Source: a virus
Lineage: Duplodnaviria > Heunggongvirae > Uroviricota > Caudoviricetes
IMG/VR virus record: IMGVR_UViG_2548876964_000035
Reading direction: 5' to 3' (one strand)
DNA: 15,159 nucleotides
Positions 1 to 3,000 of the stretch are shown in pieces (the stretch's first letter is position 1; each line of letters begins with the position of its first letter). The position numbers are program-made.

Positions 1-3000
1 TCATTTTTTCCAGAGGCGGTCGAACTCCGCCTTCGCAAAATAAGCGGAAGCCTGGCGAAGGATATCGTTACTGCGGCGCAGTTCACGATTTTCACGTTCC
101 AGCTCTTTCAGACGCTGACGTTCAGCGCTGGTGAGCCCACCATCACCGCCCCCGGTATCCCGCTCATGCTGGCGAACCCAGACACGCAGAGTCTCCGGCG
201 TACAGCCAATCTTTGGGGCAATGGAACAAATTGCCGCCCACTGTGAGTCATATTCATCCTGACTTTCCAGAACCATACGAATCGCCCGCTGACGGACTTC
301 GGGGGAAAAACGAGTATTTTTAGTCATCCTGTTTACCTCTTTCTCAGGGAGTTTAGTCTCCAGGATTTCCGGGGCGGTTCACCGACGGGAAATCATTGCA
401 GGCTGTATGTTGTTTATTTCCCTGGAATAATGTATTTGCGGATCGGAAAGTACCGAAGATAACCATTAATGACAATACGGTGACGTGGTCGAATCTTGAG
501 CAGGGTATGGGATCTTATATTTATACATTCTGGGGATAAGTGTTATGTACGGTTTGAGCATTATGAAGCCGGATGGCAGCGTATGGATAAGTCCAGGTTT
601 TACGCCGCAGTGTCTGATCAACAAAGGCACCATACCGGCGACTGAAAAGTCTTTTTTTAAAACATCAATCCCGTCAGGCAAAAGTTGTTTTTTCTTTATC
701 AGAACAGAGAAGAAGGCCGATGTCATGTACACGCATGAACAGATTGATGGATATCATGCACTAAGGCTTCATGTAATTGTCAGGGGAACGAACCCTGGTG
801 TTACGACGGTTTATGCTTTCGCGAATATGGTTACTCCACCTTCTGAGTATGGTATCGCCATGTATAACCCGGACGGTGAGATGATTTATCATGGCGAAAT
901 GATGCTGCTTGACGCGAAGTTAATACCTGTTGATATCAAATTTGAAAAGGACCTTGGATATCCATGCGCAATCATGCCTGCACTGGTCGGGTATTATAAC
1001 TGGAAAAGAACTCCTTATGATCGACCGATTTATACCACATCCACTGGTGCTACAGGAAATAAAATATATTCCTGTGAGCATTATTCCGGTGGTGCAACAT
1101 GGGATATTCGAAAGCCGTATATAGATAAGGTCCTGGTTATTAATACATCAGTATATGATTAGTTGAAGCGAGTCTTTAATATTCATTTAAAATGTCTAAA
1201 AAGATGTATTATTAAAAAGTTTAGCGTGTTATCTGAATACAGGATATCTTAAATGAAGAGTATAGCAACACTGGTTGTGTGTGCAATCTCCGGGATTGCC
1301 TGTGTAAATTTATCTGCACATGCAGCAGAAGGAGAGCATACAATTTCTCTGGGGTATGCGCACTTTCAGTTTCCGGGACTGAAGGATTTTGTAAAGGATG
1401 CGACTGCTCATAACAGGGAGACTTTCAGTCATTTCGTCAACAGAAACTACTTTTCTTCATTGGGCGAATATACAGATGGTCGGGTCAGTGGATATGAAGG
1501 CAAGGATAAAAATCCACAGGGCATTAATATCAGGTATCGCTACGAGATAACGGATGATTTTGGCGTTATCACCTCTTTTACATGGACGCGTTCTCTCACT
1601 AACTCACAGACATTTATTGATGTGCAGTCAGCCGATCATACCAGGAAGATTAAGAATCCGGCAGCTTCTGCCAGAACGGATATCAGGGCGAATTACTGGA
1701 GTCTGTTAGCGGGGCCTTCATGGCGGGTTAATCAGTACATGAGTTTATATGCGATGGCAGGGATGGGCGTTGCTAAAGTTAGCGCTGACCTGAAAATTAA
1801 GGACAATATTAACAGTAGTGGCGGATTTTCTGAAAGCAACAGCACGAAAAAAACCTCCCTTGCGTGGGCTGCAGGTGCACAGTTTAACCTGAATGAGAGT
1901 GTTACACTGGATGTGGCTTACGAAGGTTCCGGCTCTGGCGACTGGCGCACGAGTGGCGTTACTGCTGGCATTGGCCTGAAATTCTGACCTGTATCCGGTA
2001 ACCGTTTACTACCCGCTGTGATGGCGGGTTTTTTATTGCCCGTACAGGGCAAAAACCGTAAATTATGCGTGGGTGCCTTTCGGCTGATGGCTGGAGGGTG
2101 AACCTGAAGGCCTGATGTGGAAAGGCCCCGAGTCAACTTAACGTTAACCCGAGGCCCTAACACTTCGTACCTTAAGCAAGTAGAAGGTTAGCGCCTCTCT
2201 GTAAAAGGAGTCAAGCGCTATGTCGCAAAAATCGCTTATCACCGTCACAATTTGCATGACGGTTATCTTCACCATCTGGATGTTGCACGGTTCACTGTGT
2301 GAGTTCCGGCTGAATTTGTGGGGAGCGGAGTTTGCGGCGTTCTTACAGTGTAAGCAGTAGGAAAACCGCGACGGGGACGAGAGTCCCCGTCAACTGGTTG
2401 CTGAGGTTCAGCCGATATGGCACCCGTTTCAGGTGAGAGAATGAACGATAAAATTCTCTGGTATATGCAGCGTGTTGTGAGAAATTCCCGCAACCCTGAA
2501 TTTATGAATGAAGTTAAAGACGCCTGCCTTAAAAAGCAGGCGTTTTGTTTTGAGGCACCTGATGGCTTTTTGGTGCTGCGTTCTGTGCTCAGTGCTGATG
2601 GTATCCCTTATGTTCTGGTGTTGCTGGGCGTGTGTACGGGGAGTAACAGCGTTGAGCGTTACCTGCCGGAGGTGAAGACATTAACCCATCTGGCTGGCGG
2701 ACGCTGGGCTGAGTTCCATACGGCAAGGCGGGGATTTATCCGGCTGGGAAAACGACTGGGCTTTGAGCGAATGCCGGATGATGAGGATGGCTTCATGGTG
2801 TTCAGGATAGCGGTCTGACTGCTACAGTTTTCATCATTGTGTTTAAACCAACATTGTAATTCACATTCTGACCCTGCTCCGGCAGGGTTTTTTGTTATCC
2901 AGGGGGCCATTATGGGTGGAAGTAAAGGCGGTGGTGATACCAAAGTAAAACCAACAGCAGCGCAAATAGCACAGGAAGAAGTGGCCTGGAAAGGGTGGCA

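Follow-up and report, generated by a model that had tools for sequence, protein, structure and literature searches.

What is encoded between the outer-membrane gene lom and the next conserved gene in phages related to the Shiga toxin (Stx) converting phage 933W? A small open reading frame (ORF) in this interval had been taken for an unannotated Hok/Gef-like type I toxin gene, and the same interval is the published source of a 20-nt RNA, 24B_1. We analyzed a stretch of 15,159 nucleotides of Caudoviricetes DNA (IMG/VR record IMGVR_UViG_2548876964_000035), called the window below, in which this interval begins after position 1987. The data make it likely that 2036-2425 is a complete hok/sok-type (type I) toxin-antitoxin module, a moron of phages of the 933W/Sp5/phi24B type, distinct from the hokW-sokW pair of Sp5. 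Stx phages drive the virulence of enterohaemorrhagic Escherichia coli, and the accessory genes that they carry affect induction of the phage, lysis and the release of toxin. The toxin family has long been known and the protein is already named in RefSeq and PHROGs; of more than routine interest are the link to 24B_1 and to the Hfq-bound RNA EcOnc53 and a polymorphic mok frame.

The ORF downstream of lom belongs to the Hok/Gef family

The ORF runs on the plus strand from the ATG at 2220 to the TAG at 2358-2360 and has 46 codons; its peptide is MSQKSLITVTICMTVIFTIWMLHGSLCEFRLNLWGAEFAAFLQCKQ.

2220-2360, plus strand: toxin gene for a 46-amino-acid, HokA-like peptide of the Hok/Gef family (profile matches, alignments, substitution rates).

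A preliminary description of this DNA had credited the ORF with the Hok-family signature. Alignment with the Pfam profile HOK_GEF (PF01848) bore this out, with a score of 33.2 bits against a gathering score of 22 (E 4e-8; profile positions 6-42 of 42), and phrog_251, 'MokW-like host killing', matched the peptide with E 2.8e-24. The top NCBIfam model was the HokA equivalog (NF007290), at 38.4 bits, which did not reach its cut-off of 89; judged by these profiles the peptide is HokA-like and no HokA orthologue. Its layout is M-S-Q-K, then LITVTICMTVIFTIWML, then SLCE, then AAFLQCKQ, and it has a length near 50 amino acids, a basic N-terminus, one hydrophobic helix, a Cys-Glu motif and a polar C-terminal tail, as members of the family do. 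A search of 5.8 billion proteins gave 56 relatives from E. coli, Shigella and Salmonella, nearly all of 46 amino acids and named 'Hok/Gef family protein' by NCBI. The length of 46 amino acids and the SLCE...AAFLQCK motifs were maintained across the three genera. The QK and LQCK motifs were invariant among the relatives, C27 and C44 were invariant in 31 relatives, and L26 and E28 were kept in at least 90% of these.

The ORF was intact in all copies examined. The median ratio of nonsynonymous (dN) to synonymous (dS) substitution among 29 distinct ORFs was 0.21, with 301 of 301 pairs below 1, and the Stx-phage copies encoded an identical peptide (dN = 0) at dS up to 0.35. The entropy of the codon positions followed the order 3 > 1 > 2. 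By this selection signature ORF 2220-2360 is a translated gene and no relic, and by its profile matches and motifs it is a genuine member of the Hok/Gef family. The Shine-Dalgarno sequence AAGGAG, also noted in the preliminary description, was found at 2205-2210, 9 nt 5' of the ATG. By analogy with hok/sok of plasmid R1 and with hokW-sokW, the peptide would be expected to be toxic.

The statement that the gene is unannotated proved right for some records only. The ORF is missing from the annotation of the Stx2 phage I, VT2-Sakai and phi24B GenBank records and of the Sakai RefSeq record, but the NCBI pipeline annotates exactly this ORF as WP_000078907.1, 'Hok/Gef family protein', in many other RefSeq genomes. 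Annotation of ORF 2220-2360 is called for in the reference records of the phages and in the Sakai reference genome.

The predicted toxin mRNA has a conserved, covarying fold

The elements of the predicted toxin mRNA, all on the plus strand, are as follows.

2011-2036: intrinsic terminator of lom, hairpin ACCCGCTGTGATGGCGGGT followed by a T-run (terminator scan, sequence).
2036-2064: predicted promoter of the toxin mRNA, -35 TTGCCC at 2036-2041, 17-nt spacer, -10 TAAATT at 2059-2064 (conservation).
2071-2425: 355 conserved nucleotides that form the core of the toxin mRNA of hok type; GGGUGCC is its 5' end and GGCACCC its 3' box (megablast, alignment A2, fold).
2071-2084: 5' element (tac-like), partner of 2411-2425 in the full-length RNA or of 2117-2129 once the 3' end is removed (folds, pair counts).
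2117-2129: internal box (ucb-like), alternative partner of the 5' end (RNAalifold consensus, truncated folds, first hairpin of RF01794).
2190-2219: hairpin sequestering the Shine-Dalgarno sequence AAGGAG (helices 8 and 9, fold).
2370-2391: 9-bp GNRA (GAGA) hairpin after the stop codon (sequence, covariation in helix 18).
2393-2407: segment of the 3' untranslated region (3' UTR) whose pairing with leader 2170-2184 covers the antisense target as long as the RNA is full-length (helix 6).
2411-2425: 3' box (fbi-like), complementary to the 5' end (fold, pair counts).

Structure counts were made on alignment A2, which holds 51 distinct related modules. The minimum free energy of RNA 2071-2425 was -153.7 kcal/mol, in comparison with -116.2 +/- 6.0 kcal/mol in shuffles (z = -6.29), and this fold was closed by pairing of 2071-2084 with 2411-2425. 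In the 51 modules 92.9% of cells were paired, a percentage inflated by taking the structure from one member of A2. The number of pairs with double-sided changes, which is not inflated in this way, was 26, against 11.6 +/- 2.0 in column shuffles (0 of 500 reached 26) and 8-17 in slid controls.

Helices 1 and 2, which pair the 5' end, were 98% and 87% paired, with one- and two-sided changes among their pairs and a G-C/G-U/A-U series at two positions. The 5'-end variants GGAUGCC, GGGUGUC and GGACACC were also considered as a source of compensatory changes; they gave no support, their 3' boxes being unchanged. Helices 8 and 9 of the Shine-Dalgarno hairpin were 99.6% and 70% paired, with double-sided changes at three pairs, and the helix between leader 2170-2184 and 3' UTR 2393-2407 covaried (GC 28 / AU 21; AU 27 / GC 22; UA 18 / CG 15). 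The perfect 9-bp stem with a GAGA loop reported earlier after the stop codon lies exactly at 2370-2391 as GACGGGGAC-GAGA-GTCCCCGTC. It is no chance hairpin: it was 99.8% paired, double-sided changes occurred at 4 of its 9 pairs (AU 30 / GC 21; AU 22 / CG 21 / GC 6), and the loop was GNRA in 49 of the 51 modules. Equivalent hairpins follow the stop codons of hokW and hokA, and by analogy the GNRA hairpin is probably the protective 3' end of the processed, active mRNA.

The partner of the 5' end depended on the 3' end of the RNA. When folds were ended at 2392 or 2408 the 5' end paired with 2117-2129, the partner also favoured by the alignment consensus (RNAalifold); when the 3' box was present it paired with 2411-2425. 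The mean probability of being unpaired rose from 0.22 in the full-length RNA to 0.68 in the RNA ended at 2392 for the antisense target (2167-2178), from 0.24 to 0.56 for the AUG, and from 0.32 to 0.47 for the Shine-Dalgarno sequence. In plasmid R1 the hok mRNA is inert at full length and is activated by 3' trimming to a protective hairpin (PMC8621323). The switch found in silico reproduces this behaviour, and 3' processing of the present RNA is inferred from it by analogy.

The Rfam families, searched at their gathering thresholds over the whole window, gave no match. In a permissive search RF01794 'sok' matched 2071-2233 on the plus strand over the full length of the model (35.6 bits, E 2e-6 over 551 nt). 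RF01794 models the hok leader, because it matches hokW on hokW's own strand (113.5 bits) up to the hokW AUG; the leader 2071-2233 is, as far as this match goes, a divergent relative of it. With copies that follow ogr, in an unrelated context, the similarity starts at the TTGCC of the proposed -35, and both TTGCC and TAnATT are retained; the -10 lies 7 nt 5' of the conserved GGGUGCC. The lom terminator isolates the module from upstream transcription in the absence of antitermination.

An antisense RNA is predicted to oppose the leader

Four further features concern the opposite strand and its target.

2185-2214, minus strand: proposed antisense promoter, -35 TTGACT at 2214 to 2209, 18-nt spacer, -10 TAACCT at 2190 to 2185 (conservation, sokW homology).
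2120-2178, minus strand: predicted Sok-like antisense RNA of about 59 nt (fold, analogy with sokW).
2157-2178, plus strand: part of the mRNA leader to which the antisense 5' tail is directed, buried in the full-length and exposed in the truncated RNA (column entropy, folds).
2146 to 2127, minus strand: 24B_1 (UAACGUUAAGUUGACUCGGG), an exact match that covers the last part of the antisense hairpin's 5' arm, its loop and most of its 3' arm (identical to the HM208303 extract).

The minus-strand TTGACT at 2209-2214 had been proposed as the -35 of a Sok-like RNA and called speculative. A TAACCT was found 18 nt downstream, in the position it has at sokW, and the two boxes are the same as those of the published promoter p24B_1. 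This -10 was kept in 50 of the 51 modules, and the -35 of other modules is TTGCTC or TTGCCT at 17-nt spacing. An identical TAACCT, preceded at 17 nt by TTGCCT, lies 7 nt before the start of the annotated sokW of Sp5, and the hexamers of both promoters overlap the hok Shine-Dalgarno region in the same way. The antisense promoter is now the best-supported part of the interpretation.

By analogy with sokW the antisense RNA would start near 2178. It is predicted to fold into a hairpin of 14-16 bp between a 12-nt single-stranded 5' tail (UGCUUAAGGUAC) and UUUC (-32.5 kcal/mol, z -5.25). The target of the tail was hypervariable, at 0.70 bits per column in comparison with 0.22-0.38 in the flanks; loops aside, no part of the module varied more, and this target differed even among copies with identical toxins. 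Such variability fits a cis-antisense pair, because both partners change together. Antitoxin activity would be expected from hok/sok of R1 and hokW-sokW, and the same two systems suggest an involvement of RNase III, the nature of the trigger and the biological role.

The predicted antisense RNA appears to coincide with 24B_1 and EcOnc53

In phi24B lysogens after induction, Nejman-Falenczyk et al. (2015; PMC4426718) sequenced the 20-nt RNA 24B_1, published as the first 'microRNA' of a bacteriophage. They mapped it to HM208303 45711-45692, in the interval from lom to vb_24B_43, and predicted the promoter p24B_1 (-35 TTGACT, -10 CGCTAACCT) and a precursor of 80/81 nt. The intergenic region of phi24B (HM208303) was identical to window 1988-2416 at 425 of 429 positions and encodes the same 46-amino-acid peptide. 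In the window the precursor extends from about 2176 to 2096 on the minus strand, and the published p24B_1 boxes are the antisense promoter boxes identified here. The precursor binds Hfq in vitro (PMC10732415).

In strain Sakai, Tree et al. (2014; PMC4104026) found the ECs1236-ECs1237 intergenic region bound by Hfq, at rank 65 among intergenic regions. Their Hfq cross-linking and analysis of cDNA (CRAC) gave thousands of reads from both strands in 4 of 5 samples (Table S1B), which shows that Hfq-bound RNA from both strands exists, and a minus-strand peak with a predicted terminator, EcOnc53, at 1292386-1292438 (Table S2). EcOnc53 maps to about 2181-2129 on the minus strand, over the predicted antisense RNA, where a window position equals the NC_002695.2 position minus 1290399. 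The offset from the older Sakai coordinates to NC_002695.2 we take to be about +142 nt, from the old position of stx2A. A check by the Rfam position of AsxR against the EcOnc02 peak gave +135 to +139. The locus used, L101 (Sakai Sp5, downstream of stx2B), holds STnc100 at 1923-2128 (plus strand, 207.7 bits) and AsxR at 2130-2182 (minus strand, 88.1 bits), adjacent and convergent; both served for coordinate calibration only.

The antisense RNA seems to be the molecule reported as EcOnc53 and as the 24B_1 precursor, and we read the 20-mer 24B_1 as a fragment of the antisense terminator hairpin. The DNA is the same as that of the module, but in the published view 24B_1/EcOnc53 is a stand-alone trans-acting regulator, whereas here it is interpreted as the cis-antisense antitoxin of a Hok gene. 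The words 'hok' and 'sok' are absent from PMC4426718, PMC10732415 and PMC4104026, and 'toxin-antitoxin' is absent from PMC10732415, the sole one checked for it. Among the papers searched, which may not include all that exist, none that links hok with 933W, lom, Stx2, P2-like prophages or 24B_1 describes the locus as a toxin-antitoxin system, and the only one that contains both 24B_1 and hok, a mini-review, treats them as unrelated examples (PMC5488031).

The published 24B_1 constructs also alter the toxin gene region

By its primer arms the published 24B_1 deletion corresponds to window 2020-2208. It takes out half of the lom terminator, the proposed toxin promoter and the entire leader, as well as the antisense gene with its -10 and most of the Shine-Dalgarno sequence. 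The primers of pUC18_24B_1 (PMC4426718) map to 1908-1927 and 2473-2454, which gives a 566-bp insert with the whole module and the toxin gene. The insert size is in conflict with the 2023 paper, which gives the insert as the 189-nt region (PMC10732415).

ATP was reported to be lower in cells with the plasmid or with a prophage carrying the locus (PMC10732415). Such a drop would be the expected effect of a leaky Hok-type toxin. The 24B_1 phenotypes need re-testing, because the mutant and the plasmid remove or add the toxin promoter, the leader and, in the plasmid, the coding sequence; at present these phenotypes cannot be assigned to the 20-mer.

We tentatively put forward, as a possibility that falls short of an even chance, that 24B_1 is a fragment of the Sok-type antitoxin of an unrecognised Hok gene, that at least part of its physiology comes from the toxin module, and that control is mok-less. 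If this were true, the lower ATP, the shifted lysis-lysogeny balance and the changed burst size would be due to gain or loss of the module and not to a trans-acting 20-mer. There would also be a Hok subfamily that works without a conserved mok, in which the antisense RNA controls the toxin through mRNA decay or structure and not through translational coupling.

The module resembles, and differs from, known hok/sok systems

The closest experimental precedent is hokW-sokW of Sp5, a working type I pair with which induced cells stop growing sooner and release twice as many phages (Takada et al. 2021, PMC8621323); HokW was shown to kill or arrest cells through damage to the inner membrane (PMC8621323). 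The phage type and the toxin family are the same. The leader follows the same plan, with the GGGUGC 5' end, a GAAAGCCCC box, the target hairpin and AAGGAG; the antisense -10 TAACCT lies over the same part of the leader, and a GNRA hairpin comes right after the stop. In contrast, hokW-sokW of Sp5 (AP000422 59815-60089) is encoded on the other strand, at a distance of about 12.8 kb in the downstream direction, HokW has 51 amino acids and 37% identity over 35 residues to the 46-amino-acid peptide, and RF01794 scores 113.5 bits on hokW but 35.6 on the present leader. Moreover, hokW has an annotated upstream extension, mokW, whereas the present locus has an 8-codon remnant only. hokW-sokW is known from experiment and the present module from sequence. 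That the locus might be the published hokW itself was ruled out: the window lacks the hokW primer sequence, hokW has another position in Sp5, and the proteins differ. The analysis thus shows two modules of the Hok type in phages of the 933W/Sp5/phi24B type; hokW-sokW is the only one of the two that has been the subject of study.

With hok/sok of R1 the module shares an inert full-length mRNA closed by 5'-3' pairing and an alternative 5' hairpin formed after 3' shortening (here in silico and by covariation). It also shares a short antisense RNA whose single-stranded 5' tail is aimed well upstream of the hok start, and a small membrane toxin. However, mok overlaps hok in R1 and no overlapping mok is found here; therefore the R1 route cannot apply as such to this copy. 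The present module also has no terminator directly after the 3' box, and its carrier is a phage, where that of R1 is a plasmid.

HokA of hokA-sokA (K-12) is the closest named toxin, with 45% identity and a shared M-QK start, WM..SLCE and AAFL.CK motifs, and the two loci agree in the 5' end, in the hairpin after the stop codon and in a GCACCC box on the 3' side. HokA has 50 amino acids, in comparison with 46 here, and the K-12 hokA locus is disrupted by IS150.

How the module may work without an overlapping mok frame

In the mechanism that we propose, a weak promoter would give a stable, highly folded mRNA from 2071. In the full-length RNA the 5' end would be paired with 2411-2425 and the 3' UTR would lie over the antisense target, so that the RNA would be neither translated nor bound by antisense. 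Slow 3' trimming to the GNRA hairpin (about 2392) would free the 5' end to re-pair with 2117-2129, which would expose the antisense target and loosen the ribosome-binding site. The short antisense RNA (from about 2178 to 2120), made from TTGACT-18-TAACCT, would then anneal to the exposed leader through its 12-nt tail, and the mRNA would be destroyed or kept silent. When antisense synthesis stops, the 46-amino-acid peptide would be made, enter the inner membrane, and collapse the membrane potential and ATP. Possible triggers are loss of the element, shut-off of host transcription, and late transcription across the promoter after induction.

The least certain part of this mechanism concerns mok, of which one trace was found.

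2115-2141, plus strand: mok remnant, a conserved ATG with 8 codons (MWKGPEST) and TAA (frame analysis, 51 relatives).

The stop of this remnant arises from a T-run that is 1 nt shorter than that of L006, a relative in an E. coli chromosome. In 7 of the 51 modules a frame of 61-79 codons from the conserved ATG overlaps hok, and 5 of these 7 encode an identical toxin (L032, L035 and L041 are examples); in another 7 a 70-codon frame from an upstream ATG does so. The mok frame is created and broken by 1-2-nt indels in the variable target region. The frame from GTG 2117 to TAG 2191, which ends 28 nt before hok, was considered as a substitute for mok and was ruled out by indels that shift the frame among relatives; its TAG is invariant because the antisense -10 overlies it.

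Several observations weigh against a working module. The absence of a mok-like overlapping frame, noted in the preliminary description, held for the window, where no frame overlaps the hok start and that of ATG 2115 stops after 8 codons, and 37 of the 51 modules (against 14 with one) have no overlapping mok frame either. In R1, Sok acts by blocking the translation of mok, to which that of hok is strictly coupled (PMC8621323, PMC5488031); therefore the antisense RNA acts otherwise here, or many copies are silent. Both proposed promoters match the consensus at 8 of 12 positions only, and a sigma-70 consensus scan of 1950-2900 reported no promoter; the two promoters are based on conservation and sokW homology, not on consensus strength. 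The RF01794 match is below the gathering score (35.6 against 59 bits), and the Stx-phage version has no intrinsic terminator beside the 3' box, the first one being at 2520-2552. Growth and colony-forming units were unchanged with the multicopy plasmid (PMC10732415), and therefore any leak of toxin was sublethal. EcOnc53 was 'not detected' by northern blot (PMC4104026), and its mapping rests on an offset checked within about 7 nt only. Finally, the searchable part of the Sakai ribosome-profiling supplement does not have the peptide among its novel translated small ORFs, where a repressed toxin would not be expected.

On the question of mok, coupling is probably dispensable in this Hok subfamily, because the toxin is under selection regardless of the state of mok. 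Presumably the antisense RNA acts through mRNA decay that depends on the duplex, or it keeps the leader folded in an inactive form; this step is the weakest part of the mechanism. The polymorphism of mok among the relatives offers a natural test of the need for mok coupling.

Alternative explanations

One alternative accepts a working Hok module and differs on its role only, which would be mainly lytic, in the timing or completion of lysis, and not stabilisation or abortive infection. It has a precedent in hokW-sokW, for which such a role was proposed and which, after mitomycin C, brings growth arrest forward and raises phage release twofold (PMC8621323). The toxin gene is co-oriented with the late operon after lom, so antiterminated transcription would be expected to cross the ORF into the antisense promoter and could in this way release the toxin late in infection. 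A reverse transcription polymerase chain reaction signal from the region was seen only after induction, and deletion of 2020-2208 altered induction kinetics and burst (PMC4426718). However, the deletion mutant was induced faster and gave more progeny (PMC4426718), which runs counter to what was found for hokW. Copies closely related to the module, at the ends of P2-like prophages and elsewhere in chromosomes, have their own terminator and lie outside late operons, and RNAs of both strands were found on Hfq in cultures for which the data examined record no induction (PMC4104026). A main role in lysis appears less likely than not on this balance.

A second alternative is that the locus is a decayed hok relic with a silent toxin and a truncated mok, kept for an antisense RNA that regulates the d_ant and sdhB mRNAs in trans, as in the published 24B_1 model. 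The mok frame is indeed broken in the window and in 37 of 51 relatives, and K-12 hokA, interrupted by IS150, shows that inactive hok loci occur. Deletion and plasmid phenotypes have been published, together with weak pairing of 24B_1 to sdhB mRNA in vitro (8 +/- 5% bound; PMC4426718, PMC10732415), and EcOnc53 is bound by Hfq, like trans-acting small RNAs. Decay is difficult to reconcile with an ORF that is intact in all copies examined, with a median dN/dS of 0.21 and an identical protein at dS up to 0.35. Elements that serve toxin control only (the 3' box, the GNRA hairpin and the helix between leader and 3' UTR) are conserved and covary, and the part of the antisense RNA outside its hairpin is hypervariable, which fits a cis-antisense RNA but poorly a conserved trans seed. 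The published constructs, by their primers a deletion of 2020-2208 and an insert of 1908-2473, leave RNA and toxin unseparated. We consider a decayed relic improbable.

That the ORF is untranslated, its Pfam match a pseudogene-like remnant in a region encoding RNAs only, is very improbable: it would agree with the failure to find the peptide in the searchable Sakai ribosome-profiling supplement and with the omission of the ORF from several curated phage records and Sakai RefSeq, but the selection signature is that of coding sequence, the Shine-Dalgarno sequence is strong and correctly spaced, length and motifs are conserved across genera, and ribosome profiling of growing cells would not be expected to show a repressed toxin.

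Distribution, neighbouring genes and other observations

Window 1900-2700 was 100% identical to 933W, VT2-Sakai (Sp5) and Stx1/Stx2 converting phages, in 198 phage records. By megablast, related DNA was present in 1675 of 5426 complete E. coli genomes (about 31%), with the similarity bounded at about 2051-2425. Elsewhere the module was found in varied contexts, most often after ogr at the ends of P2-like prophages. The closest relatives (L005, L006, L008, L009 and L010, in E. coli chromosomes) have about 80-85% DNA identity and lie directly after the ogr/Delta zinc-finger gene, and the host genes beside the P2-like prophage copies vary (serS, ihfA, a TagO gene). In L010 an integrase-core (IS-type) gene lies between ogr and the toxin ORF, and the leader is replaced. 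In L034, an IMG/VR contig, the antisense region, the ORF and the 3' box are kept, and the toxin promoter and the 5' element are replaced by unrelated sequence. L004 occupies the same lom-adjacent site as the module in the window; the leaders and 3' UTRs of the two are near identical, whereas their coding regions differ with dS 1.17 and dN 0.32, and the L004 peptide resembles that of L007. This suggests that the toxin cassette may have been swapped by recombination inside a conserved RNA frame. A scan of genome contigs gave only 7 loci, some of them on contigs labelled with unrelated taxa (Xanthomonas, Planococcaceae, Vagococcus); these labels probably reflect contamination and were unused for taxonomy.

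The 5' neighbour of the module is the Ail/Lom outer-membrane gene lom at 1253-1987 (Pfam Ail_Lom, 113 bits), and the 3' neighbour is a conserved phage gene of unknown function annotated at 2417-2818. phrog_610 (E 2e-70) aligns from the ninth residue of the product of this downstream gene, and its true start is probably the ATG at 2441, with GGTGAGAG 5' of it, rather than 2417. With this start the hok 3' box (2411-2425) would fall outside the downstream coding sequence. One further terminator lies inside the gene.

2520-2552, plus strand: first intrinsic terminator 3' of the module, inside the downstream gene (terminator scan).

Its hairpin is strong and looks like a bidirectional terminator (ACGCCTGC...GCAGGCGT, then TTTTGTTTTG on the plus strand); it is possible that the primary transcript ends here in lysogens. 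P2-type copies have their own terminator about 35 nt after the 3' box.

A tRNA scan of the window found nothing. On the plus strand 5585-14005 is an ORF for 2806 amino acids with LPD38, LPD5 and LPD1 large-polyvalent-protein domains and a MuF C-terminal domain. The end of the window (14230-15159, minus strand) holds a host-like gene of the formate/nitrite-transporter family (Pfam PF01226, E 1e-48), and the prophage-host junction lies between 14005 and about 14227, almost directly after the large gene. In Sp5 the gene for the 2806-amino-acid protein is separated from the attachment site by about 4.5 kb of phage DNA, of which hokW-sokW is a part. This prophage therefore has another right end or integration site.

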